Below are positions 6,231 to 61,238 of a stretch of 64,000 bases of DNA, piece after piece. The position numbers and the translations under genes were made by a program. Each line of letters starts with the position of its first letter. Within the stretch, counting starts at the first letter, position 1. Below the pieces are notes generated by a model. That model was given only the letters and a program-made list of their open reading frames with translations. It ran no database searches and was not told the DNA's origin. The stretch is from Vermamoeba vermiformis (Eukaryota), in NCBI GenBank assembly GCA_045837725.1, contig JBEWZL010000066.1:186001-250000 (forward strand), read 5' to 3'.

Positions 6231-7777
6231 TTATTTGCTCAATTTGCAATGCAAGAAGTGAGACTTAACACTGCCAATTAATACGTGATCGCGCCATGCC
6301 ACAGTTGTGCTCGGACCTGAGATCTCGTCACCGTGTGTTTCAAAGACAATTTCGAACTCCAACTTGTCCTAGAGAGTTCACTATTAGCCTCACCTTATAT
6401 AAGAGCACACTGTTATGCTTACCGCAGATTTCTGACGCCACACACGACCAGGCGATTGTTTGGCAAAGTTCATCATGTACGCCAAGAAGTGCAGTGGCTT
6501 GGGATGGTTTGTGATCCACATGCGATTGTGGTCGTCAATGTCAACATTATCGAGGCCTAGGTATTGATGTTATGAATGGTAATCAAGAGCAATAGTCACT
6601 ACGTACCTGCATCCACCGACACGGTCTCTTTAAGCACCAATTCATTGCTAGTGTTGCGTGTGAATACGTGCAGGTTATTATCAACAGACGATGTGACATA
6701 AATCAATTTGTAATCCTTTGAAGCGGTAATGCCTGCACATTAAAATTTGAACGTTAGATCTAATGTCAAAATATTCTCAGAATAATGGACGACGATGCGT
6801 ACCATTAGGATACTCGATGTATTCAATAGCTTTCTTGCACTTCTTCGTCTTCAAGTCACAGAAGGTCACAAAAGCAATCTTTTTGCGCAAAATACTCTCC
6901 ATCATCTGCGCAGTGTGGCTCTTCGGTGGCGGAGGATTGAAGTGATCGACGGTCACGTAGAACTCGTGCGCACTCACTGCCACTACGTCATTCAGATTGA
7001 ACAACAAGGCATCGTGAATCGAGTCCAAGTAGTGTCTGATATGCAATGGTCAGTACACGCGAATGAATCACTCTTGCAACACTTACAACTCGTCGCCTTT
7101 GACTTCAAACAGATCTACGGCATCGTGTTCAGGGGTGTGATGGATCAAATACATCAACAGACGCTCATCTAGGACCTTAAGGTTAGAACAGGTCTCAGAT
7201 CAGTCGGAGACACATTGACTTACTGTCGCGATACAACGATAATCCGTGACTCCTAACAAGCTCCTTGCGCGGATGATTGACCACTTTCATCTCTGTCAGC
7301 TTGTTGCTGGCAAGATCCAACGAGTACACGCGTGCACCCGGAACAGGTGATCCTGCTGCCTCCTATCAATAACTAGTGAGAAAATGCAAGCGATATTTAA
7401 ATCGTGTTACTCCTTACCATGGTGTGGTTAGCTGAGGAGATGTAAGCAATGCCTGTCTTGTGGTCGATCTGCACGTCTTCGGGTCCCGTCACTGAAAAAT
7501 TATTGTAAGATCAAATATTAAATAACAACGTAAAACACCTCGAACAAAGTAATAAGCGAGGATCGGGATGTCAAAAAACAGGCAAAAAATCCTTAAAAAT
7601 CAGACAATAATAGAAAATTAAAATACTGGCATTATACTTACGATCGAACTTTTTGCAGTCGGTAAAAGTTGAATACGGCTTGATTGGCTCAAAGGCACGG
7701 AAATCCACGACAAGTGTCTTTGTTAGGAAGGCCAGCAGAGCTATGCCGACGAATGCTAATGAGCCCTTTACTCCCAT
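6231..7777 (-). CDS. Paraoxonase/arylesterase-like protein, copy 2 (tandem paralog)
   Basis: Same motifs and intron positions as copy 1, with long near-identical DNA tracts. Confidence 0.85.
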
Positions 7778-16230: not shown

Positions 16231-17773
16231 ATGGAAGCTTTCAGAAAGATATACCCCACAGAATTCTACAAGAAGTTTTTAGTTCAAAACGTTCGACCAG
16301 ATGGACGAACAAGTAGCAAAGTGCGAAAAACAACTGTATCTGCAGGTAAAAATTAAATAATTGCCATTATGTACCGAATATATAATGTTTAACCCATATT
16401 ATCAACCGCCACTCAATAATAAGCTAGAATGATTTTTCTGTAATTATTTTGATCATCTCTCATCGCGATCCGTGGTTGAAATTATCTTCTATTTCTCAAA
16501 TGGCGCTTAATATTAACTGCAATATTAGGATCCATATCGACGGCCGATGGATCAGCATTTTGTAAATTGGGCAACACTTCAGTCGTTTGTGGAATTAAAG
16601 CTGAAATTGGGGAAGTGCCGAATATCAAAGCAACAGGACCACGCCTTAGTAAGTGTTTATTATACTCTAATATTAATATAATAGATTATTCAGAAAGGTT
16701 TCAACCCTTTCGAGGTCGTTTTACCTTTGTTGTATGACACCCCTTTGACACGTGTCAAATGGAGGACTGTACGAGTTCTGATCACTAACACCTATCACTT
16801 ACAGTTGTCAATCTCGAGCTCTTGCCGCTCTGTTCACCGAATATAAAACCAGGCAAACCTAGCGAACAGGCACAAGCCACAGCTGAGCTACTCAATCGTG
16901 TCGGGTATGGACTTTCATTTAAACTTTTACCAGCAACAAGCATATATTATTCACTCGCAAAGGCGCGGTTAATATGATATTCAATTACCCTCAAAATAAG
17001 AGCCCGAGACGAGTTAATAAGATAACTTTATGTAATATTAACTTACCTGATTTTGTTGCATTACAGCCGCGATTTGTTGAACCACAAAGATTTGACAGTG
17101 TCAGTAGCCACACAACACAACGATAAAATGACAGATGTCAGTGACGAAGACGATGACAGGCCGAAAAGTGTCACGTTGAACTGGTTCATTTACGCGGATA
17201 TTTATTGCTTGGATTACGACGGCAATGTGTTTGACGCTGCACTTATTGCACTCGTGGCTGCCCTCAAGAACTGTAAGTACACTGCAGTCTTATTACTCGC
17301 GTGCTTATTATTAACATTTGCCTTAAAGTCACACTCCCGCAACTTGAAGTCGATGAATCGGGCGATGTATTTGCGGTCAAAGAGAAGGGCACCAAATTGA
17401 AGTTGAATATTCACCCTGTGCCCATTACTTTTGGTTTATTTGAAGAGTACGAAGCTATTACGAAGATACGTTACCGTGTTTCTTGTGCTTACATTTTTTC
17501 TTAGTTATGTGTTGGCCGATCCTAATATGGAAGAAGAACAATTGATCACAGGCTCATTCACAGTTATTTGCAGCGAACAAGGATTGTATTCGTATCTGAA
17601 AGCTGGTACGTAAAAAGGATAATCCACTTTATGACTGGGCCTGTAAATCCTAACCTCGATAATTAGGTGGTGCGCCAATCAGCGAGCAAGTGTTGCAAGA
17701 GTGCATTGAAAAGACGAAACAACGACTGAAAGAAGTGCACGAGATTATCAACCACGCGCTCGAAAGCAAATAA
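16231..17773 (+). CDS. EXOSC8: Exosome subunit RRP43/EXOSC8
   Basis: [62 protein letters not shown]. Confidence 0.9.
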
Positions 17774-17819: not shown

Positions 17820-20176
17820 TTATTCGCTGGTGTCTACTCCTTCCATAATAGGTGCTGGACTAAACATGTCAGCATTAATTTCGTCAATTCGAGGTGGGAA
17901 ATCTAATTCGATCTCTTGACAGTCCAACCGCAGCAGATCCGCTTCACTGTTTAACATTGAGGCGATGCTAGGCACTGATCAAATAGTTAGTCCAGGGCTA
18001 CATCGGTTATTGATAGAAAGTACCTGTGCGACCCATGTCACCGTGCACAAGTTCTTTGACGTAAGTGCCTGCTTGTGTCACTAGATCCAACACCAAGTAG
18101 TGCGGCGAGACGTATGTACATTGCATGGAGTGAATTGTTTTCTTGCGCACTGCACTGCTACGTCGATGCAACACGCGGATAGGAGTGCGTTGATCAATAA
18201 CGAACTCCTCTGTGCGATTCAACTTGGCTGCTTCTTCTTCGGTTACTGCTCGCGAGGTCCAAACAACACATCTTATTTGTGTTAGTAATTATTTAAGAAC
18301 CCAATGCCAACATGTACCTGTAATGTTTCTTCTTGGTCTCTTCACCTTGCTGAATGATGTTGCAATCTTTCCTACAACAATGAGGTTAGAACACATCGTG
18401 TCGATGTCAACTTGACAATCGCATACTTCTCAATGCCCTGCAGATCGTGTACTTTCATTAAATCAGTGCTGGCATTGATCTTATCGCGCATTTCAGTGTA
18501 TTCTTCACGCGTGAATGTGTGTTTTCGGGCATTTATAATTTCAACACTGAATGGACGCCCGCGGCCCAGCATTCTGCAATAGGTTAGCTATGCTTAGTAC
18601 CTTTCAGCCACCATACCTCACATCTACATCTTCCCGCCCTGAGGTGGCAAATCGATATTCATCCGCCTTAAAGTAGTGTTTGATGACATTTTCAATGTAC
18701 TCCGTTAAGGCCGTTTCAGTTCTGCGTTCTCCATCGTCTAACACCCAAGGGGTTTGGCTCATCTCTCTTGAAAACTTTATATAGCGCCCTATGAAACGTT
18801 AGGTGTGCGAATCTCACAGATCTCTAGTGGATCGTACCTGCAATAAATACAGAACTCTTAAAAAATACTAAAAGGTGCTCCGCGGCAGTCTTAAGAGCAG
18901 GAGGAGGAATAGTAACGCCAGTCCTAAGCAAAACAAGAGCAGGTGAGCAAAAAAAGAATGGTTCCGCCCGGAATCGAACCGGGGACCTACTGCGTGTAAA
19001 GCAGATGTGATAACCGACTACACCACGAAACCAGCTTGTCCACGATTTCGAGGAGAAAAGGGTCACACCACTTCGGCCTACCTGAGTAAGAAGTTTGCTG
19101 GATCTATCTCCTCCAGCGTTTCTACTGCTCGTGCGGCAAAATCTTCGTCCATCTGTACAACGATAAACGTTTAACCCGATGTTAACAACCTTATAAATGC
19201 ATACCTTTCGCTTCTTGCGGCTGTGGCCTTCAATCATTTCAAGCACTTTGACATATTCAGCCTCGGTTTCGATGTGCTTAAAATTCAATCGTACATCAAA
19301 TGTACACTAAAGTAAGACCGTTAAATGATGCCCTAGCCAATTAAAAGCGTACCATGAACTTGAATCGTCTTTGTAGTCGCTGCAAGATAATCCAACCCAA
19401 CACCCACTTCATGACTTCTTTGACTTCAGGAGCACCCTCGTCGCTCTTGAGGGAATAAATTGAACACGTCCAATATTTCAAATCACTGGTGCAGACATTA
19501 GGCGAATTATCGTTCGTAAACTCTTGGTATACATACCCTAGCTTCTGCTTTAAATGATAATACATGGAAAAGTGTCTCACAATTGTTGCTGACGGCACAT
19601 TGACGGCTAATTGATAGTCACTGTCTTCGTAGCCGCAGTTGTTAATTCTATTCAGCAGTTCATCCTGCCACAATTCCGAACCAACTTGCTGAAGTATACC
19701 GAGGCATAATGGACACGCTATAAGCGTACTTAGTAAAACTATACTACGAACAGGCATACGTACTTGGATCTGTCGCTTCGTTTGTTGACAGTTGCATGTA
19801 CTCATCACGTATTGACTGATCGGGCTGTCTCGTGAGGATTGTACGGATTGATGCTTCTAAAAACTATTTGCGCGTGTTAAACGTTGATTATTTACAAGTG
19901 GGAAGTAGATCGGAAACAAAAATAAAAAAAATTAAAACAAAATTCAAAATAAATTACCTCTGTCTTCTCGCGATAGAATTTATATTCTCGTAAATGAATA
20001 AATCGACAAATACATCGTACGCAACAGCCAAGCCGTTTTAACTCGACAATGACTTTTGACTTTTCTTCCGCCTCTTGTACATCAGTTAAATACATAGATA
20101 TAATATCTGAGAAGTTTTCTTTGACATGTTGGACCTTTTCTTCAAAGGATTTTGGCGCTGCCGTTGTTTCCGTCAT
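17820..20176 (-). CDS. PUS10: tRNA pseudouridine synthase PUS10
   Basis: GRYIKFSREMSQTPW, SGREDVDV|RMLGRGRPF, QRTPIRVLHRR, TQAGTYVKELVHGDMGRT. Confidence 0.93.
18959..19032 (-). tRNA. tRNA-Val (anticodon TAC), nested in PUS10 intron 18924-19081
   Basis: GGTTTCG...TCTGC TT-TAC-AC GCAGT...CCCGG TTCGATT CCGGG CGGAACC A folds as a cloverleaf; followed by a TTCTTTTTTT Pol III terminator. Confidence 0.95.
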
Positions 20177-40101: not shown

Positions 40102-40987
40102 TTACTCGTCCTTGTCGTCCTTGTCGTCACCACCGTCCTTGTCGTTGTCGCCTTGACCGTCAGAAGTCCACAAAGTCAAGTTATCTCGGAGCAATTGCAT
40201 AATGACGGTCGAATCCTTGTATGAGTCTTCAGTAAGGTTGTCGAGCTCAGCAATGGCGTCATCAAAAGCTTGTTTAGCGAGTTGGCAAGCCTTGTCCGGG
40301 CTGATTATTATAAGAAGCGTTAGAATCAGTCTTTGCGGTTTTTTAGATTTTGAATCGAGCGTAATAAAAATTAATTGGTACAATTCGATTCTATTTGCCG
40401 TTGGTGTAATATTAAGATTCGTACCTGTTCATAATTTCGTAGTAGAAAACAGAGAAGTTAAGAGCAAGACCCAATCGGATGGGGTGGGTTGAGGCCAACT
40501 CCTTGGTGGCAATATCAGAGGCTGATTGGTAAGCACCCAAAGACTTGTCGGCGGCGTCCTTGCGGAGGTCTCCGGCCTTGAATTCAGCCAAGTATCTGTA
40601 GTAGTCACCCTTCATTTTGTAGTAGAAAACCTTAGCCTCGTTGGATTGAGCGGCGGGGATGAGGTGCTTGTCGAGAACGTTCAAGACGTCTTGGCAAATG
40701 CCAGAAAGCTCGTCTTCAACCTTGGTTCTGTATGAGCGAATTCTGGTAACGTGAGTGGCGTTGCCCTTGCTCTCTTCCTTCGATTCGATGGAGGAAATGA
40801 TTCTCCAAGAAGCTCTGCGGGCACCAACAACGTTCTTGTAGGCAACAGAGAGCAAGTTGCGCTCCTCAACGGTCAATTCAGTACCGAGTTGAGCAACCTT
40901 CTTCATGGCTTCAACCATCTCGTCGTAGCGCTCGGCTTGTTCGGCCAACTTGGCGAGGTAAACATTGTCTTCACGAGTTTCGGTCAT
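40102..40987 (-). CDS. 14-3-3 protein, two exons
   Basis: [62 protein letters not shown]. Confidence 0.98.
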
Positions 40988-41527
40988 TTTTGTTTTTTAA
41001 ATTGAGAGAACTACGATACGTGGTGTTCTGTTGGTATGGGAGTATTTTTGGCTCAAAACGAAGATTTTGTTGTTCAAAAAATAAAATTAATAAATTTACT
41101 CCAGCCAATCCTGTTTCAGCTCGGTGTGGAATTTTTAGCCGCAACGTTTATCAAAATTAGAAATTTAAAATCTCGCGCCTTCTGGTTGCGGAATAATTTA
41201 ACTTTATCTTGCATCGTTGTACCCTTGTTGAGGCAATTGTTCTGGATGCAGCTCGTTCGTTCAGCCGAGAGCTTAAGACGGTCTTGTTTCCTACTTTTAC
41301 TGCCAACCCTTTTCGCAAACAACTTCCCGTTGCATCGAGTAACCTATTTCAGATATTTGAGAGCGATTTACTTGCGATTGAAAGCGAATCCAAAATCACT
41401 GAAGCAAAAACGGCCGTGTGAATAATTTTGGTCGTAAATTCTAATCTTTTACACACTAACCAGAGTAACCAATGTCGTGTATATACAATTTATAATATCT
41501 ATTTCAATCACTGGGTAAATTGAACAG

Positions 41528-44085: not shown

Positions 44086-44959
44086 TCACAGTTCCATGTT
44101 GAACACGCTGTACAACTGCTTCACAGTCGTCAGCTGCTCTTCAGCGAGCACACCTAACAGCGCGTGTGCAAAGTCTTTGATCTCATTGTAGCGATGCAGT
44201 TGTTCGATCTTGCGCTCAGTCAACGCCTTGAGCTCTGGATGTGTTTCAAGTCTGCATTGGGTCAGGTACGTGAATGATGCAATAGTGTTGCTACTTACTC
44301 ATCAACATCGCACGCCATATTGTCCTTCACTTCGATGATCATGGCATTGCTGTCTAGCTCTTCATCGTCAATGCTCTGCTTGACTGGCTCTGGCTGGGCA
44401 CTCGTGTCGTGCTGGTCAATAGTCTTCCACAGCTCAATGACTTTGAACTGCATAGCTAATTTCAGCTCGTCGATATTCTTCTTGGCCGCTTCAACAGTGT
44501 CCAGCTGTTCGAGCAGCAGTGTCATCCGACGGAGTTCTGTTGCACGATTAGATAAGCACTAATAGTCATGATCCATACCTTTATTGTCCACTTCGATAGA
44601 GTCGTCGCGTAGACCTCCTGATTTAGCATAGTAATAATAGGCCTAAGAAAATAACTCCGATCAGTTTGGACTGTACTCCAGCTTTGTTCATACCTGGTGA
44701 GTCGGATAATACAACAACGTACCCTCGCATATCGGTTTGCTATGGAGAAGCTTCTTTCTGACTAGACCTTGCAGAATGTACTGGCCTCCTCCTGTTCTGT
44801 CCGGTTAACAACTCGATCTGACGTTGCACCTTTTGATCGCGTACCGAAGTCTAGAGACTTGAGGTAATCGAGGAGGTGCACCGAAGTTAAAGGCTTGCGT
44901 TCTATAGTAAACAGTCGAAGCACCTTCTCTTCCGGATAATTAATATTAATCTTCTCCAT
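44086..44959 (-). CDS. Swi5/Sae3-domain protein with N-terminal winged-helix-like region and coiled coil
   Basis: C-terminus KIEQLHRYNEIKDFAHALLGVLAEEQLTTVKQLYSVFNMEL* matches the Swi5 signature; five exons join in frame. Confidence 0.75.
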
Positions 44960-45473
44960 GTCTGGCCAGCTTTGATTCAGTTATGAGCTGTTGTGGTCTT
45001 GTGTAGCAGAGTAGTACATAAAATGATGTTCGCAAAGTCCAGTACGCGACTTCTGTCAGCAATCTCCCGCCCTATCTCGGTTAATGAATATTCCTGAAAT
45101 TGCCAAACTTGGTTATCAGGCCACAATATCTCCTGCATCTCGGTGCGATCTCATCAAGTAAAGATATGCCAAGCCTTCTTAGAGTATTAACATCCCCTTA
45201 AGCGCCAGAGCAAATCAAAATTAGTAATCAGAACTATAAATAGACATTTCGGGTGGAATCCGTTTCGGTGCTTATGAAACCACGGCCGAATTACCATTAA
45301 TTTAGGCAGCGAACTTGAGTAAAATAGGAGTAGGCATAACCATATGAGTCCTATCGAAAAGTATACGCATAATCGGTTGTATTTCCTTTTAAGGGAATTT
45401 GAAGTCAAAATTAAATTTGGGTTTAGTTTTTGGTTCAGTTGTTAGAAACTTCTCTAGTCCAACGCCACACAGG

Positions 45474-46382
45474 ATGGACAATAATAATGTAAATCCCGAA
45501 GGACAGCGGAAGCGAAGGAAAAAGAGACCGAATCCGTTAAAGCCACTAATTGTCCGATGGAAATTGGACGGCGAAGCATCTTCAAATACTGCAGAATCAT
45601 CAGAAAATCAAGAAAATCAACCTCAACATCGTGAGGAGAAATCAGAACAGCCACAATGGTCATTTAATACGCCCAGTGAGGCAGAACGCGTTGATCGGAA
45701 AAGAAGGTATTCAGTGGCTAGTCCTCAAGAATTTATACATACACAACAAAATAAGGAAAATGACGAGGATATTCAAGTTAAACGACGAAGATTAATGTCC
45801 GTGCCTGATGTAAGCCTATTAATGCCTGCTCAACCAAATCAGATTCCGATGAATGACCGAAATATACCTCCTCCGAATCCCTCATTATGGGCTGCAACGC
45901 CACTAAATAATGCTCAGCTGGCAGAATTAAATCAACAACGACGACGGTCTCTTGGCGATATATTCTGTCCGGACATCTCATCGACGCTCACCAAGTATAT
46001 CACAGATCGCAATCGATTTAATCTTCCACCATTACCATTCATGATGCCTATGCAGCCACTGATAGTCCCTGATGGCTCAAATCCACTTCCACCGCCTCCC
46101 ATCCCATTCAATTTTCCATTTAATGTTCCGCGCGAGCAGATGGAGCCAGGCATGCCACGCAATCTGCTGCCAGTAGTGCCAATGAACAGTCCTCCTTCAA
46201 ATACACCTCAACAACCTAAATTGACGGACTTATTAAACAGCGCAGAACAATCAGATGTGTCGCTGTCAGTGCTCGCAGCGGTGTGCAATGACAAGCAGAG
46301 CTCAGAGCGGAACAACAGCGATGATAAGACCGTGAATGCTGGCAAGAGCAGCGCCGAGTCTACTGAACCTCAGAGCTCTTAA
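45474..46382 (+). CDS. Hypothetical intronless low-complexity protein with basic NLS-like clusters
   Basis: Single open frame of about 300 aa; RKRRKKR and KRRR clusters; Pro/Asn/Gln-rich; no family recognised. Confidence 0.6.
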   Translation: MDNNNVNPEGQRKRRKKRPNPLKPLIVRWKLDGEASSNTAESSENQENQPQHREEKSEQPQWSFNTPSEAERVDRKRRYSVASPQEFIHTQQNKENDEDIQVKRRRLMSVPDVSLLMPAQPNQIPMNDRNIPPPNPSLWAATPLNNAQLAELNQQRRRSLGDIFCPDISSTLTKYITDRNRFNLPPLPFMMPMQPLIVPDGSNPLPPPPIPFNFPFNVPREQMEPGMPRNLLPVVPMNSPPSNTPQQPKLTDLLNSAEQSDVSLSVLAAVCNDKQSSERNNSDDKTVNAGKSSAESTEPQSS

Positions 46383-46595
46383 TCAATTTTAGGGGCTCTG
46401 ATATTGTAAAATGTTTGTAAATACAGAATATCAATCTTGACTTGCCCTGTTCTTAATTAATTACTTGCAGTTTATTAAATGCAGCATGATCGAATCTAAA
46501 TTTAAATCCAATTAACGAAAGATTAAATTCGCTCATTGGTATACCACAAAAATATTGTTAATTTCCTTATATAGACGGACGGTATAATTGCAATC

Positions 46596-48289
46596 TCACA
46601 TGGGGCGGAGGTTCTTTGCGTGTACTGGAGCATTTTGCAGGATATTCTCAATGCTGTGCACCATATAACTGCGTTAGTAGTGTAATCCGCTGACACATCC
46701 AACTCCGAAATTATTGCAATTTGTTAAAACTGCTAAATATACTTTGCTGAATGTAGCAATGCGAATTTAACCGGTTCTACTCACCGTTCGAGCACTGCAG
46801 GTGTTAGTTTGGACACTACTTTGAGTGCCTGCAAGTTCTCAGTCACCTGCTGCACGCGCGATGCTCCAGTAATGACCTGCCGAATGAAGTCAGTGTCGCG
46901 TCGATTGATTCATGAACGACTGGCCGTACCGTAGACACGTGTTCATTGCGGAGACACCACGCCAATGCGAGTTGAGCGGTGCTGCAGTCCAAGTCACGTG
47001 CGACTTCACTGAGGGCCTTGGTCTTCGCGATCACCGTGTTGTAATCGCGCTCTTCCAAGCCATTGATGCCTGCCACTGTTAGCGACAGTATTACCAAATT
47101 AGGCAAGTACCTTCGTTGTTGTAGAACTGATTCTTGAGCCAGGCCGAGGTCTCCAAGGCCAGTCTGGAGCCCTCCGGAATGCCGTCGTTGTACTTGCCTG
47201 GCACTGATCAGCACTCACTGATGATGACCAAATTAGGCAATTACGTACCGCTGAGCAGACCGCTGGCGAGTGGGGACCAGACGGTGAGTCCGAGGCCCTG
47301 TGACTGCGAGTAGAGGGGCAGATAGTCGCGCTCCACTTTGCTGCGACAGAACATGTTGTACTGCGGCTGTTCCATCAGCGGTGCAATCAGACCCAACTTG
47401 TCGGCCACCGTGCACGCCTCTTGCAGCTGTTGGGCATTCCACTCGCTCGTGCCCCAGTAGAACACTTTGCCCTAATTAGGCAAGTCAGTCGTGCGTGCAT
47501 GTACCGCGCACTTACCTGTCGGATCAGATCGTTCATGGCGCGCACAGTCTCTTCAATCGGCACACTGGGGTCCGGTCTGTGACAGAACAACAGATCTACG
47601 TAGTCGAGCTGGTGTAAGGGTCAGTTCAGTGAACAGTTCGTTCAGTGAATGAGTGCTTTACCTGCATGCGCGCCAGTGACTCGTGCAGCCCTTCAAAGAT
47701 GTGTTTGCTGCAACACTGTCAGCAATGGTACCACTAGCAACACTATATAACAGCACTATCGATACGCACCGCGAGAGACCCTTGTCATTGGGACCAGTAC
47801 GCCCCTCAGTGCCGAAGAACAGCTTGGTGCTGATCACTAAGCTCGATCGACGCCAGCCCGTCTTCTTGAGCACCGTGCCCATCACGCGCTCTGCATTGCC
47901 TTGCTGCATATAAGAGCTGTTAGATATATATATATCAATGGCTGTGCTCAGTACGCACTGAATAGCTCTCCGCATTGTCGAAGAAATTGACGCCAGCCTA
48001 GTATTGCAATACAACGCTTAGTCTCGTGCTAATATGACACTACAAGTGCGAGTGCGTACGTCATAGGCTGCTTTCATGCACTCAAAAGTGGCGTCTTCGT
48101 CTTTGACTTGACCGCCGTAAGTGATCCAAGCTCCGAGCGAGAGGCTGGACAATCTCAAGCCACTATATGAATATTAGCTTATTATTTGTAATTATGCACG
48201 CCCATTGAAATCATCCAACACTATTGCATTGAGTTGCAATCTTAGCTAGTGTCTTACGTCTTTCCCATGCGACGGTATTCCATGCTCAT
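46596..48289 (-). CDS. Voltage-gated K+ channel beta subunit-type aldo-keto reductase
   Basis: [65 protein letters not shown]. Confidence 0.92.
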
Positions 48290-48540
48290 TGTAGCAAAGG
48301 TGTAGTAATGTTATTATTATTGATAATAGCTAGGACGAGTGCTAGGCGTGGTAGTCAGTGGAAGGTTCGAATGAAAGTGCCAAGTTTGACGGCGATTACT
48401 TGTTTAATACAACGAGTGGTATGCACCATGATCGCTGTTTGATCAAACTCTATTAGACCAATCCTGCATTTGTAACATATTTGTACATATCAATACATCA
48501 CCAGCGAGTTGAGATCTGACAGAGGTTAACAAAAACAATA

Positions 48541-50034
48541 ATGCTGAAATGGACTATTGGTGTAAGTATTTTTTAGAGACCGATTCTTTATATTCAGAAG
48601 ATGTTGTATGATAATCAACTCAATTAACGGCAGTTGAATTTTACTAAAAAATAATTCTCAATATTTGGATCCACAGAAAATCGCATCTTTTCGCTTCAAC
48701 CGCGAGTACAAACGAAGCTTGGCACGTAATAATCAAGAGCGGCTAGACACTATGCGCGTGTTCTGGTGGACACAGTTCTACAACAACTACAAACGGCGCG
48801 TCAAAGAAAATCCTGCGTACCGCGAGAAAGATCTTACGTCGCTTGAAATTGACGGTAATACTGCGCAACATTAATATATAATGGCACGATAATACGAGCA
48901 CGTGTCCGAGGAGCAGTACTAATGGATATCATCCGTGCAGAGATGTGCGACACTGCGCGCGGTGACAAATTGCCACTGATGGAGCTGCGCAATCAAGTCT
49001 ACATGAATCTCGATGAGCAGATTAATACCATATTTGGACATATCTGTGCCAGCGGAGGTCTCAATCCCTATCCCAAACCAGTCTATCGCATTGGTGAGAA
49101 GCGCTACGAGTACGATCAAGTGACCGATGCTGCCATTGAGAATGAGCTCAAAAAACAATTTCTATATAAGGAAATTGAAGTGTACAACCCTGGTGTAGAA
49201 CTGCCGCACCCTGACGGATTCAGTCTCGTCGTCAAAAAGAGTGCCATCGATCATCCTGCTGCTGGCTATGGCGTGTACGTCAAGGGCGGTGAGTTTCCTA
49301 ATTAGGAATAGACCTGAGCTAATGGCCAAATATAGAAATACTGCCCGGCACGGTGATTGGCTTCTACCCTGGCACAGTGTATTTCCCGCAAGACATCACC
49401 GAGTCGGTGGTGCACGAGAATGAATATCTCGTCGGGAGATATGACGGCGTGGTGATCGATGGCCGCATGTGGGACCGACGCGCGGAACAACTGCACCGCG
49501 AGATACGCAATCTCCAATACGCCTCAGGTACGTGCTGATTACTGAGAATGTGACAGGTGTCAAATCACTGACAGGTGTCACGTGCCAGGGATGACACCCG
49601 ACCTCAGTTCACTGAACAAGTTCCGCAATCCCTACGCAATCGCGAATTACATCAATCACCCGCCACGTGATCAGCTCAAGCGCGTGAATGCCTTCTTGTA
49701 CCAATACGACTACCCCGCTGACATGTACGGCGAGTGCTGCACTTTGACATCTGTTCACTGAACTCACGTGTTGCTCACTAGGCCCGAAGAATTCAAGCAA
49801 TATATTCCGCACGAATTCTTCAAAGCTCCGAATGTGCTGTGGGCTCGTGATGACGTCACCATGTTTGGCATGGTCTGTGTGGCACGCCGTCGCATCAAAG
49901 ACGAAGAACTGTTCGTGAACTACAGACTCAATCCCGCCAATCCCTATCCTGACTGGTACGCGCAGCCTGATGAGCTCGAAGCGAAACGACGCTGGGGCAA
50001 ACTCAGTCGGTGGTGGAGACCTCCGCGCCTGTAA
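48541..50034 (+). CDS. SETD9: SET domain protein, SETD9-like
   Basis: AAGYGVYV, GTVIGFYPGTVY, RYDGVVIDG, NPYAIANYINHPP, DEELFVNY. Confidence 0.8.
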
Positions 50035-50225
50035 TAAAGCACCGTCAACACTCAGCTAACTGTCTTGCTAGACCTCATAGAGTGCCGTTCATTTGCACTG
50101 TGTACCAGTCGGAGATAACGTTGAAATTCCGCGTCACGTGACAAACCAAACTCCGATCTGTGTCAAAACAGAGAGTTAACCGTATAATTTAGTCCAAACA
50201 GTCAAACACACCACTGCTAATACAG

Positions 50226-50451
50226 ATGTGCTGAGTACTCATCTCTGGCTGCACTTACTTGATCGAGGTCGTTAAGGGTTGGCTGGGCTACGAAAGTGAG
50301 CATTCACCGGAGTTAAATCAATTATTGATATATTAATTATGTAATATTACAAGCCACGGAATGCTCGTCCTGAGGAGCAGAAGACTCGTTGCAAGATCGA
50401 GATCGAATGATTAAGAACAGCGACGACGATTCAAGCGAGAGCGATCCATAA
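50226..50451 (+). CDS. Candidate small selenoprotein (46 or 55 aa) with in-frame TGA(s)
   Basis: Exon 1 (50226-50295) reads MC[TGA]VLISGCTYLIEVVKGWLGYE; donor GTGAG at 50296; acceptor at 50353 or 50380, both in frame; stop TAA at 50449; SECIS downstream. Confidence 0.65.
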
Positions 50452-50527
50452 ATACAGACAACACAACACGTTATTAATATGCTATTGTATCATATGATAT
50501 AATGATTGAACTGCGGGATCGAGTGGC

Positions 50528-50596
50528 GCGTTGTGTTGATGACAAGCGTTAAGCCCAAACATCATCGATGAGGCTAGCACTTTGACTACGCAACGT
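50528..50596 (+). promoter_or_regulatory. Eukaryotic type II SECIS element
   Basis: Helix I GCGTTGTGT/ACGCAACGT; core ATGAC (50539) and TGAC (50583); helix II AAGCGTTAAGCC/GGCTAGCACTT; unpaired AAA at 50557; apical minihelix CATC/GATG; AATAAA at 50621. Confidence 0.88.
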
Positions 50597-50764
50597 ACCA
50601 GCGATCATACTATAGTTTATAATAAATGCTTAATACTACGACTCTTGTCTGATGCTCACACAGTCAATTTCGAAAACAGAAAAAACGAAACGAAAGCAGT
50701 ATTATTGTTTAATTATAGCGCACTGCACCACCACAACTGCGTCAATTATAGTCGCGTATATATA

Positions 50765-51617
50765 ATGCAGCGTTATATTGTCGAAGAAGAGGATGTGCAC
50801 AGCATCGAAGAGAGGAGTCTGATCAACTCTGACGTCAACGAGGCAGATGTGATCATGCGCAAATATTTGAAAGAGAGGAAGCAAATGGAGCACGTATTGT
50901 AAGTATCAGTGCTCGTAAATACAGATATCAGTGCTCGCGGATGTCGATCGGCTCTAATGTCCCCTCGCCAGTGCCCTCAAGTTCGTACTCGTGCTCTCCA
51001 TTGCCCTCACCTTCGCCGTGGCAATGATCTTGTTCTTTCCACAAGTGCCTGCTGTCTACGTGTTCAATGGCGTCTATCGCAATGCTTCATTCGACTTCAC
51101 TGGCCCGGTGCCCAGGGGCTCGGTCATCATTCAGGTCAGTATTGCCTTATTTGGTAGTATGTTGTCTAACACCGTGCAGTTCGATGTGGTGCTGTCAGTG
51201 ACCAATTACTTGCCCATCACTTTGCAGCATCTAGATCTCGTCATGCGCTTCCACAGCTTGGCGATTGGTGTCGTGGAGCTGAACAACTACAAGCTGTTCC
51301 ACGACACGGTCAAACTGCCGCAGAATATTCTGTTTGACTCGCACAACATCAGCTTCAAAGAGCAAGAGGCGCTGCAGGACTTGGAACTCTTGGCGAGTGA
51401 CTTGCTCAAGGGCCAGATCGAGCTCAATTTTGCTGGTGTAGCGCAACTGTCAATACTCGGCATACCTTTCTCATTCGAATACTATCGCGAGGCACCTGTT
51501 GACTGGATTGACTTCTTTGTCAACAACACGGAGTCAAATCCGAATCAGAGCAACAAATACGCGCAGTTATTCGCGCCAGTGCTGAGTGGTGCGCAACCAG
51601 CGAGCATTGCCTATTGA
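50765..51617 (+). CDS. Single-pass membrane protein, LEA_2-like beta domain
   Basis: TM FVLVLSIALTFAVAMILFFP followed by LSVTNYLPITLQHLDL, which resembles the LEA_2 pattern. Confidence 0.55.
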
Positions 51618-51724
51618 CCTAAACACTAGCGGGACTAGTACTGTACATATTATCATCTCCGTTGTATTATTTAAATATTGCGTTATCTAAAAGAGTTTTG
51701 TTTATTATTATAGCGTTGTATTAT

Positions 51725-53493
51725 TTAATGGTGTTTCTTCTTCTTTTTGACGTTCTCTTCGTCGCCATTGTCATCATCTTCGTGCTTGCGCTTCTTGCTC
51801 TTCTTCTCTTCACCATTATCCTCTTGTTCGTCGCGCTTCTTCTTCTTGTCCTTCTTATCTTTCTTATCCTTCTTGTCTTTCTTGTCCTTCTTCTCTTTGT
51901 GCTCAGCAGGGGCTGGAGGTTCAACTTCCATCTCACCCAGTGTCGAGTCAGCAGCAGCGTTGTAAGTGCCAGCAGTAGAGCCTTGAGCGGGCTTGTCGTA
52001 CTTCTTCTTTTGCTTGCCAGTGGGGGTCTTGCTCATGGTGGTGGTGAAGTCACCCTCCAACTGTCGCATGCGCAGCTGTACTTGTTCCAGACCATCAGCA
52101 CCGACGGGCTTGGTGTCCTTGTCACCGAGCGCATCGACTCTGATTGCCAGTGCGGCCTTGTTGGCGAGCACACGAGAGATCTTGCCCTTGAACTTGGGGG
52201 CAGTTTGACCGACCAATGAGGCGTGGTAGATGAGACCGTACTTGGGGGTCTGTTTCTTGGCCTTGAGGGCGCGGAACAGAGCCTTTTCGGCACCCAAGAT
52301 CTGCACGGTGCTAGCGGGGTGCTTGGCCAAGTTGAGCAGACTGCCTGCGTGCGCAATCAAACGAGCTCCAACGAGTTCACCGACGAGCACGGTCAAGTTG
52401 GGGGCAATGGCGCGCATTCTGTTCTTGACGTACTCGTACAACTGTTCACGATAGGTGCTCACTTCGAGGACTTGATCGCACAGCTCTACGATGTGATCGA
52501 CGTCTTCTTGACTGATGTCAGTACCCATGCTCACTTGAGCGGCGGCGCGGATCTCATCGGCAACACCTTCTTCGACAACACGGTTCAACTCAGCCTTGGC
52601 GATCTGAGTGCGGGGACCTAATTGCTTGACGACCTTGGCGAACTGAATGTTGTCGGTGATCACCTTGGCCAATTCGGGGAAGTGCAAGCCGTACCACTCC
52701 TTGACGCGCATGCTGTATGTGTTGATTTCTTTGTCAAGATCGTCCAACAACGCTGCACAATCGTTAGTGTCGGTATTAAAATCGGACAGTGTACTGTTAA
52801 TATGATGCTTGTTCTCGTTGCAAAAAAAAGACTTGATTACTTACAGATCGCTTGCACGATCATAACGTCAACCTTGTCAGGGCTGAACTTGATCTTGTAA
52901 CGAGAGAGAGAGTGAGAGAGACCCAAAGCCATAGCGTGCAAGTCACTGTCAGACATGTTCTCAGAGATGAGGTTGTTGAGTTGAAAACGGATGCAGCGCA
53001 TCAACTCCATAACACTATCGTCGTGGACGGTTTCAATGCTCAATTTTTCACGAATAACAGTCTTCAATTTAGCATCAGCGACGGCCAATTTCTCACCAAG
53101 CTTCTTCTCTGCAACAGTCTTCTGCAAGAATTTTTTCAAGTTCTTGCTCAGCTTGCCTTCGTTGATCGCGGTAGCCGCTGCCAAAGCATCAGCGGTATCC
53201 TCGAATTTCTTGAAAGCCTGTAGAGATACACTATTTATGTGTTAAGGATAATTAGGCAGGTTTGGTATTTTAATAAATAATTAATCTATTTTTCTGTTGG
53301 GATTTGGATACGTTTTCTTGGCGCCTTCGACGTTCTTGAATGAATCGAACAATCCATCAGCATTTTCGAGCTTGCCATCATCGTGGAGCTTAAAGAGGGC
53401 AAAGCCAGCTGATCGGATTTTGAATCAGCGATGGGAAGATTGGGATTCGTTTTTATAGTGAAACTTACCAGGTGTTTCAAAAAGAACTAACAT
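51725..53493 (-). CDS. NOP58: Box C/D snoRNP protein NOP58
   Basis: MLVLFETP|AGFALFK, LGLSHSLSRYK.KFSPDKVD, AKHPASTVQILGAEKALFRALK, KKD-repeat tail. Confidence 0.96.
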
Positions 53494-53666
53494 ATTTTTG
53501 TTTTGTTTTGTTGAGTTGCGAGAAGAGGCCAAGAACAATTGGTCACTGTTCGATCTTGGTTTATCGCCAATTTTTTGCCTCCCGAGTTTCGCGATCTGAG
53601 GGAGGCAGTATGGATCCAAGGCAGTTAATTTACAATAAGGTATTTATATATAAACACTATAGTACA

Positions 53667-54865
53667 TTAGTAGGACTCTTCCTTCTTATCTGGCGAGAAC
53701 TGAAAAGCATTCGGATCTTCTTCTGAAGGTCGACGCACATAACCCACGTAAGTCGGGAATGCACCTGCCATGCGTTAATACGATGTATTTGTAGTATAAT
53801 TATGATAGGCACTACTTACATGATTCGCGACGACCATACACGACGCGCTCGTTCTTCCAGAATGCGAGGGGCTGGATGCGTCTTCTTCTGCTGCGTCGAG
53901 CTCCGGGTGTCTTGTTGGGTGGCGACTGCAACTCTTCAACAACGTACTTGTCGGACACCTCTTTCGTCTTCTTCTTGGGGGCAGCACGAAGTCGCTTGGT
54001 CTTAGTGTGAGGCTTGTTAATCTCGTTCTCTTTGTCGCTCTCGTCGCTCATCAGGTGCGCATCCACATCGTGCTCAATGGGCTCGTAGTCATCCTCGGCA
54101 GCCATAGAGGCATCAAAATCGAGCTTTTTGGCCAGTGAATTGTCTGCAACGAGTGGCGAAGAGTGGCGAGTGAGTGCTGTGACTTCAGTGCGACCACTGC
54201 GCGGTGACTCCAGATCTGCGCTGCGTACAGTGATCGGTGTGGCGAGTGAGGACTTAACCTTGCTCACTACACTCTCAGGTGAGGCCACTATAGCGTTGTA
54301 TTAGTTAACGAAGCATAGAATTGAAAAGGGCGTACTAGGCGAGGGTTCAGGTGCAGGCTCGTCATACTCTTCGTCGAGCGCCATCATCGACTGCTCGTGC
54401 TCTTCAATGGGCTCGTCCATGGCCTCATCGATCTGTTCCTCTTCGCTGGCTGCGACTTCTTCAATCTCTGAATAGTATTCTTCTTCTGAGTCGCTGGGAA
54501 CAACAGACTTCGTGTCTTCCTCAGCTAATGAAAATTATGAGTTTATATCGCGACACTTCACACTGTACTAACCATATATCAATCGAGCATTCAGGATAAA
54601 GTCTTCTGGATCGTCAAACAAACCATCCGGAGTCTTCTTCAGACAGTTTCGTTTGTCCACCCCAACAATAATTTTTCTGTTATAAGGTAAGTTCATATTT
54701 AATATTAAGTGTTCAATCAGTACCTTTTTTTGGCATTTTCGAGCCAGGTTTTCTGGTTGCAGTAGAGGTTAGATTTGTTTTTTAAAAGGCCAAGCTACTT
54801 ACTTTTGATGGCGTTAAATTAACCCCAATAATGCTAGATCTTCGCATGCTAACTCTACGCGACAT
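53667..54865 (-). CDS. CENP-C/Mif2-like kinetochore protein (CENP-C motif, no cupin domain seen)
   Basis: RRSRRRRIQPLAFWKNERVVY matches the CENP-C motif; the rest is acidic and disordered. Confidence 0.65.
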
Positions 54866-54981
54866 TGTGGTGTGTAGTCTCGCTCGTTCGAATGAATAAC
54901 ATTGTAACGGACGAATGTTTTTGTTTAAAAAAAAATGGCGGGCAAAAAAAAACAAATTAGTTCCACACAAGACAAGTTACC

Positions 54982-56550: not shown

Positions 56551-58816
56551 TTACTCGACGGTAACAGACTTGGCAAGATTACGCGGCTGATCCACGTTGA
56601 ATCCCTTCAACACAGCCAAGTGGTACGCCAACAGCTGCATAGGCACGATGTTGACGATGGTCTGCAGACAGTCTACAGTGTGCGGCACCTTGATGATGGG
56701 CAGCCCAGTCTTGGCGAGATGTTCATCGACCTCGCTGCACACCACCACTGGTCGTCCCTTGCGCGCGGTGATCTGATGCAGCGCGTTCTGTGCCTTGCTG
56801 TACACACTGTCCTGCGCCAAGAAGAAGATCACTGTCGCGTGCTCGTCGATCAGGGCGAGTGGACCGTGCTTCAATTCACCAGCGAGAATCGCTTCAGAGT
56901 GAATGTACGCAATCTCTTTGATCTTCAGCGCTGCTTCCAGACACGTGGCACGTTGAAAGCCGCGACCAATCAGGAACAAGCTCTTGACATTGGACAGCTC
57001 GAGGGCGAGCTTCTTGATCTGGTCTTCGAGCTGCAGGGCCTCGTGTATCAACTGCGGCAATCGTTTGAGCTCTTGTATCACTTGCTCTCTGCGCGCACTG
57101 AGAGACATGCGATCTTGACCGAGCACGAGCGCGATGAGAATGATGGCGATGATTTGACTCGTGTAGGCCTTGGTGGAGGCAACACCGATCTCGGGGCCTG
57201 CATTCAAGTGCACGCCGCAGTCTGTGAGTCGTGCGATCGATGAGCCCACGGTGTTGGTGATGCCCACGCACAGCGCACCACGCTTCTTGCAGTACTCGAG
57301 GGCTGCGATGGTGTCAGCGGTCTCTCCAGACTGCGAGATGAAGAACACCGTGTCGTCGCGGAAGATGGGGGTGCGACGATCGAGGAAGTCTGAGGCCAGC
57401 TCTACACTCACGGGCAGATCTGTCAGCTCTTCTACCAACTGCTGCGTCTGTGGAGTGACACGTGTCAAACACTGATCGGCGAACAGAGCCCACGAGTACT
57501 TACCGCAATAGCTGAGTTGTACGAAGTGCCGCACGCGCAGAAGATGATGCGACGACAGCGCTTGATGGAGTCAATGTGCGAGCTGAGTCCGCCGAGCTGA
57601 ATGGAGTTGTGATCGTGACGCAATCGACCGCGACACGTGTTGATGACACTCTCCTCTTGCTCGAAGATCTCTTTCAGCATGTAGTGCGCAAAGTTGCCCT
57701 TGCTGAACTGCGACAGACCCTGCTCCAGTGTCGTCAACTCGCGCACTTCTTGCGAGCTGCGCATGGCACGATCTTCGCTGCGATAAAAGTGAAATTTCCC
57801 GCGCTGATCGATGTAGACCATGTCATCATCCTCCAAGTAGATCACTTTGCGCGTGTGCTCGACAATGGCGTTGATGTCCGAGGCGAGGAAGTACTCCACG
57901 GCAGCACTCTGTTCCTCGTGCTCCAGTTGATGTGCCACCAATTCGTTCTGCAGCGCACTCGCACGACTCTTGTCATCGCCGAAGATGACATTCACGAGCT
58001 GTGTGGTGCTGCGCGCACTGTCAGGCGTGGCATTCAACTTGACGCCCATGATCAGCGGACTGCCGCGCTTAGCAGCGACTATCTGTTCGGGATAATAGGC
58101 ACTCTTGATCACGAGTGCATAGGCCCCCTGAATGGTCTCCAACACCTTGCTGATCACAGCGCGGAATTCAGGCTCGTGCTGCAGCTTGCTCTTCTGGTGC
58201 CGATAGAAGTACAGCGCCAGCTTGGCCACCACTTCAGTGTCGGTCTCAGACTGGAAGCTGTAGCCCTCTTTCTCCAGCGAGGAGCGTATCTGCGCGTAGT
58301 TGGTGATGATGCCGTTGTGTATCACGACAAACTCGTGCTCGGGCGTGGAGCTCTGCGGATGGCTGTTGCGCACTGCCACTTCACCGTGCGTGGCCCAACG
58401 TGTGTGCGCAATGCCCACGTGGTTGGAAAACACTGCTGTCTGCAGCTGTCGTTCAGCGACAGTATTCTGCACGAGAGCTGCGAGCTTGTCCACATTACCG
58501 ACCTCGCGCAGCACCAAGATCTGCCGCGGAGTTAGTGCCAAATAGGAATAATCATCAGAAGCAGTACCTTGTTGGTCTTGGGCTCCGTGATGGCAAGTCC
58601 AGCTGAATCATAGCCGCGGTATTCGAGTCGACGCAGACCTGTAAGCAAGGTCTGCAAGATGACCTGCATTGTTTGCGGCGAGTGGTAATTTAAATAGGCA
58701 AATATTCCTAAATATTAATTTGTTAATATTACATCGTTGAAATCATCGTATGCTGTAATGAAAACAAATAACCGCTATGATTTCTCCTGATCTTCAATAA
58801 ACAACGTACCACACAT
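56551..58816 (-). CDS. GFAT: Glutamine:fructose-6-phosphate amidotransferase
   Basis: [63 protein letters not shown]. Confidence 0.97.
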
Positions 58817-59031: not shown

Positions 59032-61238
59032 ATGAGCACTGAGCAACTGAATGATACAGTTATAGCAGTTGCGCCTTTAAGCGCAGAACACACTGCAGAT
59101 CTTTCAACCACGATCCCCGATGAGAATATAGCACCGACAATACAGCGAGTCAAAAGCAGCAATTTATTGCGCACTAGTCCTATTATCCCTGCTGAAACTA
59201 AGAAGAGAAAACGAGGAGCAGATGAGGACGATTACGCCAATGCATTCACTGACACGACGAATATTCACTCGAACGGCGATGCACCGCTATCTCCGGGCGA
59301 ATCACCCACTAAAAAGCGAAAGAAACTGACAGATGAGGAGAAGGTGAAGCTGATTATCGAAATAAATCACTGTTATTAATTCCATCAATAGGCTGAACGT
59401 GAACGACAGCGATTAGAGCGCGAAGAAAAGAGACAACAAGAATTGAAAGAAAAAGCCGAGCGAGTAAGATACTTTACGCGGGTGTATTATTCGTTACTAA
59501 TTCTTCGACAAGAAACTCAAAAAGGAAGAGGAGCGCAAACAACGCGAAGAAGAGCGCAAGCAGAAGGAAGCAGAGCGCGAGGAACAACGGCGACAACGCG
59601 AAGAGGAGAAGAAGCGCAAAGAGGAAGAGAAGAAGAAGAAAGAAGAGGACAAAGAGAAGCAACGCTTAGAGCGCGAAGAAGAGAAGCGCAAGAAAGAAGA
59701 AGAGCGCAAAAAGAAAGAGGACGAGAAGAAAAAGAAAGAGGAGGAGAAGAAGAAGAAAGAAGAAGAGAAAGAGCGCGCTGAAGAAGAGAAGAAGCGACAA
59801 GCAGAGAAGAAGAAAGCGTACTGGGGTCAGTTCAAAGCTGCCAGCAGTGAGATCGTTGCTGCCTCCTCGAGCTTGCAGTCCTCGCACGAACTCGCGGCGC
59901 AGAGGGTGGTGAGCGAGGATGGTCTACAGAGTTGTTCCGTGCCTGGCAACCTGCCGTGAGTGCAGTGATTGCACCGCTGCATCGATGGCAATCACGCGAC
60001 TCTTCTTCGTTTGAGAATCAGCTCGCTGCTCAGAATGGTAAGTGTCTCACTGACACGTGTCAAATGGAAGTTCGAACTGACGTGCGTGTACAGTGCAAGT
60101 GTCAATCGCTACACTCCCCAAACGAGCACGTGTCACTCGCCGATCAGTACTGACCGCCAGACGTGCGCGTCGAACATCACACTACCAACAGGTCATTGAT
60201 CTGAGTGGTGCGGCAGATCCGCAGCTGAATCCGCTGACCGATCGACTGCTGCACGCGCGCTTCAAGTACCTCAACTTCCACGAGAACGTCAGACCCGCGT
60301 ACTATGGCACGTGCACTGCGCAGTGTCGTCGCGTTACCGGTCGCCGTCCGTTCAGCAAAGACGAGTCGGTGGTGGGCGACTACGAGTACGACAGCGACGA
60401 GGACTGGGAGGAAGAAGAGGGCGAAGATCTCGATGCACTCAGTGACCGCAGCGAGGAGGAGCCTGCGCAGAGCACGAACAAGGAGGAGACTGAAGAGGAC
60501 TACTGCTACGACGGCGAGTTCTTGGTGGCTGATGGCTACTTGTCGGACGAAGAGGGACTCAAATCTGACAACGAGGACGACGAGACTGAACGAGATCCGC
60601 TCATATCTCCCGCTGATCTCCCGCCCAAATCTGAAGAGGAGCGCGCACGTGATGCAGAACGACGTCAAGAGCGCATGAAGAAGATGATGGCGCACAAGAA
60701 GCGAGTGGCAGAGTGCCAGGCAGTGGTGGCAGGTCCGATCTATCACCCGAGCAGTGCTGAAGAGCGAGTGCGCGCACTGATCACGTGCTATCCTGTCGAA
60801 CTGCTCGCCGCGCTGCCGATCGATCCGCGCGTGCCACTGGCGGAAGAACTCGATGAGGAGCAGACGAGTGTCACTGCCACACCAAATAAGGCAAAGGTCG
60901 TACCGGACACGTTGGTGCCCGATCTGATTCGCATCTTGCACGGTGCCAGTTCACGCACCCACGTGATCGACACTTTTCACAAGTTACATCCGCACATCTC
61001 CAAGCGGCAGATTGAGCGGAAAATTGTTGAAATTGCGTCACGTGGTCAAGTTGATGACAGACAAGGATGGGTGGTGCGTCCGGAGATTGTCGCGAGATAC
61101 ACGAATAGCACGAGTGAAGTATTGCCTAATTTGGAAGTGAAGCAGGAGAGGTCAGGCGACACTTCCACTGCGCAGTCTGTGGACTCACCGTCGAGTGCTG
61201 TGGTTGACACGTGTCACCGTGAAGCGATGATTCAGTGA
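59032..61238 (+). CDS. CHAF1A: Chromatin assembly factor 1 subunit A (p150/Cac1)
   Basis: KER coiled coil; FHENVRPAYYGT, DYEYDSDEDWEEEEGEDL, LVADGYLSDEEG; C-terminal winged helix. Confidence 0.9.

Follow-up and report, generated by a model that had tools for sequence, protein, structure and literature searches.

The window analysed here is a 64,000-nucleotide (nt) stretch of Vermamoeba vermiformis DNA (contig JBEWZL010000066.1 of assembly GCA_045837725.1, positions 186,001 to 250,000 of the forward strand). It contains a very small two-exon gene, here called the micro-gene, which starts at position 50226 and carries two TGA triplets within its 55-codon reading frame. The gene is real and expressed, as its spliced transcript and its frame, conserved in a related species, both demonstrate. 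It is very probably a genuine selenoprotein gene, served by a hairpin of the 3' untranslated region (UTR) acting as selenocysteine insertion sequence (SECIS). Both UGA codons, at codons 3 and 30, are likely to be decoded as selenocysteine (Sec); we infer Sec insertion itself from the sequence.

Gene structure and transcript

Direct reading of the sequence gives the start codon ATG at 50226-50228, then TGC, the first in-frame TGA at 50232-50234, a GT donor at 50296 and the stop codon TAA at 50449-50451 (the full set of coordinates is collected in Table 1). The exons, joined by coordinates, form a frame of 55 codons with two in-frame TGAs, one at codon 3 (Met-Cys-Sec) and one at codon 30, denoted below as UGA-1 and UGA-2. 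No in-frame ATG is present between them. Stops interrupt both remaining forward frames, two in each frame of the window and three and five in the related locus L001 described below. The TGA at codon 3 of a two-exon frame had been proposed in an earlier note made from the letters of the window, and both the sequence reading and the conservation in L001 confirm it.

A 313-nt contig from the public run X1 aligns to 50237-50295 and 50354-50607 across a GT..AG joint. It differs from the window by one mismatch (C>T at 50462), and the X1 sample is therefore not identical to the assembly. Three X1 contigs fall within the region 49700-51000, each lacking one GT..AG intron (of 57, 58 and 73 nt). Since the introns are missing, also in two neighbouring genes, these contigs derive from spliced RNA. 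A single spliced contig spans 50237-50607, and thus the small frame and the hairpin belong to one mRNA, as the earlier note had anticipated. The 3' end of this contig, 50607, lies 14 nt short of the AATAAA signal, so that the poly(A) site is outside the RNA coverage. The raw RNA runs X21-X23 are uninformative, with 1, 0 and 0 reads at the locus.

The two exons suggested by the earlier note are present in the spliced contig, but the acceptor is located at 50354 in RNA and not further downstream, where the note had it. With the RNA-supported acceptor the frame gains a second in-frame TGA at 50371-50373, within a Cys-x-x-Sec-Gly motif that the junction of the note had passed over, and encodes 55 residues, which is the upper end of the 46-55 residues estimated before. 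Hence the core of the selenoprotein proposal holds, backed by the transcript, the conservation in L001, the compensatory changes in the hairpin and the use of TGA as a stop elsewhere, and its single Sec has to give way to two probable Sec residues. The AATAAA that the note placed at 50621 is read directly in the sequence, as is the AATAAA of the upstream gene, which overlaps that gene's own stop (50033-50038). UGA-1 is located 61 nt upstream of the sole exon junction, and the distance to the SECIS core along the mRNA is 247 nt from UGA-1 and 166 nt from UGA-2.

Conservation in a related species

Two metagenome scans were carried out. The scan with the gene downstream of the micro-gene as a query found no relative; the second one, with Nop58 as a query, found one locus, L001 (10,645 nt; Nop58 protein identity 95%). 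L001 is syntenic with positions 44321-54892 of the window at 69-77% DNA identity and carries the micro-gene on its minus strand. It retains ATG-TGC-TGA, the donor, the acceptor, Cys-Ser-Ser-TGA-Gly-Ala, the reading frame with both TGAs and the same TAA, as well as all five Cys/Sec positions (three Cys and two Sec). No paralogs of the micro-gene were detected by local tblastn in the window or in L001.

Conservation with L001 sets in abruptly at the ATG 50226: exon 1 is identical at 65 of 70 nt (93%), as compared with 34 of 94 columns (36%) directly upstream. Four of the five differences in exon 1 are synonymous third-position changes, and the remaining one is a conservative Leu to Ile replacement. 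Exon 1 is under purifying selection, since Nei-Gojobori counts over codons 1-24 give a pS of 0.261 against a pN of 0.018. The L001 intron (65 nt, GT..AG) shares 26 of 65 columns (40%) with that of the window. Identity along exon 2 is 23/28 in the 5' part, 23/51 in the middle and 18/19 at the end; the diverged acidic middle has a 6-nt in-frame deletion in L001, which preserves the frame and the stop. L001 lacks the two ATGs that occur further along the window mRNA, and the ATG at 50226 is therefore the sole start conserved in both species; translation presumably starts there. In the 3' UTR the identity is 40% ahead of the hairpin and 67% within it.

The comparison with L001 also bears on the genetic code. 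The gene downstream of the micro-gene ends with TGA (51615-51617) in the window and with TAA in L001 (at about 3370), and conservation collapses beyond this point. Besides, open reading frames (ORFs) of 371-385 codons with complete Pfam domains (Nop, CAF1A and GATase) contain no TGA. For these two reasons TGA is regarded as an ordinary stop in this genome, and consequently the two conserved in-frame TGAs must be recoded in a special way.

The SECIS-like hairpin

Helix I of the hairpin lies 76 nt 3' of the stop codon, very close to the distance of about 77 nt given in the earlier note. RNAfold predicts -32.7 kcal/mol for 50505-50615 (z = -1.97; 8 of 200 shuffles are at least as stable). The AUGA sequence (50539-50542) faces GA (50584-50585) within an open internal loop, and both are unchanged in L001. 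The run of unpaired adenines is AAA, 14 nt past ATGA, in the window and AAAA, 13 nt past ATGA, in L001. The mini-stem of 4 bp is the same in the two species, and its loop differs. Altogether the two copies agree in ATGAC, the A-run, the mini-stem and TTTGAC. The RNAalifold consensus of the two copies consists of 20 pairs with three compensatory changes, two one-sided changes and no broken pair. The hairpin had been called a canonical SECIS, and its ATGA/GA quartet, AAA, mini-stem and 9-bp helix I are indeed found; helix II, given there as 11 bp, has 10 pairs, a mismatch and a bulge in the RNAfold prediction.

The hairpin of L001 aligns with the Rfam model SECIS_1 (RF00031) over all of its positions (1-64 of 64) with 23.9 bits and an E-value of 0.006 in a small search. 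A covariance model constructed from the two hairpins recovers only those two copies in the window and L001. A self-written loose pattern similar to SECISearch was applied to both strands, with 30 first-order Markov shuffles as the null; when helix I of at least 8 bp is demanded, it has one match in the window, the micro-gene hairpin, versus a shuffle mean of 0.43.

Some other matches were obtained in these scans. The sole Rfam match of the window hairpin, a Chlorobi ribosomal leader (E 1.2), and a SNORD88 match of the L001 hairpin (E 1.6) were rejected. Positions 6958-7012 (+) of L001 also match the loose SECIS pattern, helix I having 9 bp; this match is treated as chance because it lies in an intron-like unconserved stretch between conserved exons and has no counterpart in the window. 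Further matches in the window with helix I of at least 6 bp are 40659-40706, inside the 14-3-3 coding region but on the other strand, and 16412-16463. Two near-identical segments of the minus strand about 1.7 kb apart, 4709-4755 and 6430-6476, both fit the loose hairpin pattern, which suggests a tandem paralogous gene pair.

The protein and the family searches

The product of the micro-gene is an acidic protein of 55 residues and ~6 kDa with a pI near 4, as computed with each Sec entered as Cys. It is formed by a hydrophobic-leaning N-terminus, the Cys-x-x-Sec-Gly motif, a variable acidic linker and a conserved Ser/Asp/Glu-rich end. The N-terminal stretch of 20 residues is nearly invariant; its best 19-residue Kyte-Doolittle mean is 1.41, which is under the usual membrane-helix level.

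Family, structure and homolog searches were made with single-exon peptides, which are weaker queries than the full-length protein. Pfam contains no family for the two window exon peptides, and there is no Rdx match at E <= 10 for four exon peptides. A match of L001 exon 2 to DUF7837 (17.6 bits versus a cut-off of 27.8) was rejected as a composition match of Cys-x-x-Cys plus an acidic tail. Neither exon peptide has a match in the Protein Data Bank at E <= 10. The exon-1 peptide has no word-sharing relative among proteins of 24-77 or 78-2000 residues; the exon-2 peptide is too short for these two sets and for HMMER. A HMMER search of 1.84 billion representatives returned two matches, P0001 and P0002, which were rejected as spurious because both are repeat proteins and the match extends into the intron-encoded tail of the query. 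Searches of the open-access literature, taken without supplements, brought up no description of a similar protein. As far as the families and sequence collections searched go, the micro-protein probably represents an apparently undescribed family; the membrane selenoprotein MSP was set against it by its published description, and membership of MSP or of one of the 'hypothetical' selenoproteins of Lobanov et al. 2007 is dealt with below as an unlikely alternative. The new family proposed in the earlier note is consistent with every search run, under the same restriction.

Points against a selenoprotein and alternative explanations

A number of observations weigh against the selenoprotein assignment. 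The 5' end of the X1 contig (50237) is 11 nt past the ATG, which leaves the start codon outside the RNA coverage. The comparison involves one related species, and the covariation is drawn from two sequences. With helix I unrestricted, the loose pattern matches the window 26 times versus a shuffle mean of 26.8, i.e. at chance level; because the pattern alone is no better than chance, the support for the hairpin comes from the transcript and the conservation. The window hairpin has no Rfam SECIS match, either at the gathering score or, for queries of 701 nt and 111 nt, at E <= 10, and the 23.9 bits of its L001 counterpart are under the gathering score of 35, which is a detection threshold and not a biological definition. 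The 3' core is UGAC in both species: K, G and A of KGAW are matched and the last letter is C. KGAW is presented as a consensus for the 3' core of SECIS, not as a rule, in the part of PMC3753652 used here. The UGAC core may be a lineage trait, which would partly explain the weak model scores. On the protein side, the exon-1 peptide searches gave no homolog with Cys at a Sec position. According to the available text of PMC7539508, Cys forms are almost unknown for MSP and also absent for SELENOK and SELENOS. Finally, the open-access literature searched yielded no Sec placed as far forward as codon 3; the earliest Sec found reported is that at position 9 of Euplotes SelW, as given in the available part of PMC3737529.

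Four other explanations were considered. It is quite unlikely that only UGA-2 encodes Sec, with ATG-TGC-TGA being a two-codon upstream mini-ORF and translation of ~50 residues starting at a near-cognate codon (e.g. AUC/AUU at codon 6). Such an arrangement would agree with the RNA contig starting only at 50237, with the lack of open-access reports of Sec at codon 3 and with codon 6 being ATC in the window and ATT in L001, near-cognate starts both. It is disfavoured because codons 4-11, with two synonymous changes and one conservative change, look translated and because conservation begins right at the ATG and takes in TGC-TGA. There is also no in-frame ATG between the TGAs from which a shorter protein could start, and the Cys before TGA in both species would be left unexplained, a weak argument given two species. 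A decoding of the UGAs without selenium, by near-cognate tRNA read-through or by lineage-specific reassignment, the hairpin being an unrelated UTR structure, is very unlikely. An odd code is possible on taxonomy, as identity to the nearest named Nop58 proteins is 57-66% and the tree neighbours are metagenome proteins only, and the window hairpin is missed by Rfam. Yet the next gene ends in a TGA that is swapped for TAA in L001, the long domain-bearing ORFs are TGA-free, and both UGAs adjoin Cys in motifs typical of selenoproteins; moreover, the hairpin keeps the letters that define a SECIS while its stems co-vary, and the L001 copy fits the full SECIS_1 model.

Most improbable is a conserved spliced non-coding RNA or UTR fragment in which the frame and the hairpin coincide by accident. 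The ORF is indeed tiny, the databases searched hold no protein homolog and the hairpin pattern is at chance level, but the substitutions are those of a coding sequence: 4/5 exon-1 differences are at third codon positions, the length of the indel is a multiple of three, and the stop and the last six codons are conserved versus ~40% identity in the intron and the UTR. Neither of the remaining forward frames is open in either species. A divergent member of a named family, either MSP or a 'hypothetical' Ostreococcus selenoprotein, would affect the novelty of the protein only and leave the mechanism as it is; this is an unlikely case. In the available description (PMC2375036) MSP is predicted to be a membrane protein, carries two Sec and is confined to unicellular eukaryotes, and the present protein also has two Sec and a partly hydrophobic N-terminus (best mean 1.41). 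The description that was compared gives neither a size nor a motif or sequence for MSP (PMC2375036). In Dictyostelium MSP is named there among four 75Se bands without a stated size, and SelK was undetected (PMC2375036, in part).

Proposed function and significance

For the micro-gene as a selenoprotein gene the following mechanism can be suggested. A single type II SECIS would serve both Sec codons, UGA-1 and UGA-2. By analogy with known selenoproteins, the product is tentatively considered a possible thiol/selenol redox mini-protein, in which Cys-x-x-Sec-Gly would cycle via a selenenylsulfide and the N-terminal Cys-Sec would form a second, mobile redox centre in the manner of the thioredoxin reductase pair. 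A metal-binding site formed by the five conserved Cys/Sec residues is the next guess after a redox protein, and a rather doubtful prediction. The size of 55 residues, with two Sec and three Cys, permits chemical synthesis, and the redox or metal chemistry is therefore directly testable.

Under the mammalian-type 50-55-nt rule, stops located upstream of an exon junction cause mRNA decay that depends on the exon junction complex. If UGA-1 is read as a stop, a dipeptide would be formed and, provided that this rule holds here, the mRNA would presumably be subject to decay; expression might then be gated by the selenium supply via UGA-1. The most far-reaching version, in which the micro-protein is the smallest eukaryotic selenoprotein that we found mentioned and founds a new family in the lineage grouped with the metagenome Nop58 proteins, with UGA-1 as a selenium gate at the start of translation, appears somewhat improbable as a whole.

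If this reading is true, SECIS-dependent recoding can act on a ribosome that has barely passed the start codon, Sec being inserted two codons after initiation. Sec at codon 3 would thus bear on how early after initiation SECIS and eEFSec can work. It would also mean that selenocysteine is used in a poorly sampled lineage of microbial eukaryotes. Micro-selenoproteins of this kind escape ORF finders as well as homology-driven selenoprotein pipelines, and nothing similar is present in two large protein collections.

Surroundings of the gene

The neighbouring genes at 49783-50031 and 50958-51617, which had been named SETD9 and LEA_2-like, match no Pfam family at E <= 0.1 (two fragments), so that these names are unverified. 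The palindrome TCACGTGA ahead of the start codon is a possible promoter element. It has six copies in the window versus 1.41 expected, a number reached by 2 of 100 shuffles; the other copies are at 33959, 34731, 36389, 43426 and 61690. Upstream of the L001 ortholog, GTCACGTGAC is found inside an otherwise unconserved spacer. The spacer between the downstream gene and the convergent Nop58 gene contains an (ATT)n run that is longer in L001 than in the window.

The nearest named Nop58 proteins (57-66% identical) are those of oomycetes, chytrid and zygomycete fungi, green algae and cryptophytes among the matches listed. A maximum-likelihood tree was built with 36 rows, of which 35 were picked from the 120 matches listed; in it the window protein groups only with three metagenome proteins (support 100/100), apart from oomycetes, fungi, holozoans, green plants and cryptophytes. 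As far as this sequence comparison goes, the lineage seems to be poorly sampled.

Table 1. Positions of the micro-gene, its hairpin and other features of the window.
Feature	Position	Strand	Basis and remarks
Exon 1, coding sequence (CDS)	50226..50295	+	Start codon, Cys, first in-frame TGA, 20-residue partly hydrophobic stretch; end phase 1
UGA-1, codon 3	50232..50234	+	Putative Sec; within ATG-TGC-TGA kept in L001
Intron, 58 nt, GT..AG	50296..50353	+	X1 contig joins 50295 to 50354
Exon 2, CDS	50354..50451	+	Cys-Ser-Ser-[TGA]-Gly-Ala, variable acidic stretch, conserved C-terminal SESDP, TAA
UGA-2, codon 30	50371..50373	+	Putative Sec; Cys-x-x-Sec-Gly motif; stretch TCGTCCTGAGGAGCAGA same in L001
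SECIS-like element, type II form	50517..50606	+	RNAfold; RNAalifold consensus with L001
Helix I	50528-50536 with 50588-50596	+	9 bp
Core	ATGA 50539-50542 with (T)GA(C) 50583-50586	+	Fold and L001 invariance
Helix II	50544-50556 with 50572-50582	+	10 pairs, one mismatch, one bulged A
Unpaired AAA; 4-bp mini-stem	50557-50559; 50560-50570	+	Fold
AATAAA, putative polyadenylation signal	50621..50626	+	Read in sequence; L001 has ATTAAATAAAA at the equivalent place
Palindrome TCACGTGA	50134..50141	.	~85 nt upstream of start codon; possible promoter element
Nop (Nop58-like)	51725-52840	-	Pfam 5.6e-86
14-3-3	40412-40996	-	Pfam 2.8e-82
CAF1A dimerisation domain	60081-61238	+	Pfam 1.1e-21
Class-II glutamine amidotransferase	57465-58607	-	Pfam 9.1e-17
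tRNA-Val (anticodon TAC)	18958-19033	-	The window's only tRNA and only Rfam gathering-level match

Comparison with known selenoproteins

SelK and SelS are short proteins of no recognised fold, hydrophobic towards the N-terminus and disordered and charged towards the C-terminus. The micro-protein resembles them in being short, with a hydrophobic N-terminus and a charged C-terminus. However, the single Sec of SelK and SelS is situated beside the C-terminus in a Gly-rich context, whereas the Sec residues of the micro-protein are at positions 3 and 30 of 55, and its window exon peptides have no Pfam match.

In thioredoxin reductase the C-terminal Gly-Cys-Sec-Gly forms a selenenylsulfide on a flexible arm. 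The micro-protein likewise has Cys and Sec side by side at the end of the chain, but here it is the N-terminus, the pair follows right after the initiator Met, and the flavoenzyme is absent.

The Cys-x-x-Sec-Gly motif is reminiscent of the active-site turn of SelW and SelT. The micro-protein shares with the Rdx family (SelW, SelT, SelH, SelV; PF10262) Cys-x-x-Sec followed by Gly and a helix-prone stretch, the small size and a type II SECIS in the 3' UTR. In contrast to these proteins it has 25 residues after Sec, which is too short for the thioredoxin-like fold of Rdx proteins, no match to their profile and an additional Cys-Sec at residues 2-3. The CxxU motif is mentioned for SELENOW in the available text of PMC7539508.

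MSP, the 'membrane selenoprotein', is reported from Dictyostelium, Chlamydomonas, Volvox and Ostreococcus in the available part of Lobanov et al. 2007 (PMC2375036). As far as the published descriptions go, MSP and the micro-protein are alike in having two Sec, in occurring only in unicellular eukaryotes and in that Cys forms are nearly unknown (PMC7539508 for MSP); the hydrophobic stretch of the micro-protein is under the usual transmembrane score.

A comparable arrangement of the codons is found in SelW of Euplotes crassus, with Sec at position 9, a second UGA at position 85 and one SECIS (PMC3737529, in the part available). Judging from that part, both proteins are small, with a very early Sec codon, a second in-frame UGA and a single SECIS. 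They differ in that the micro-gene has its UGA already at codon 3 and belongs to another family and lineage. In Euplotes UGA also encodes Cys, whereas in the genome of the micro-gene TGA is a stop.

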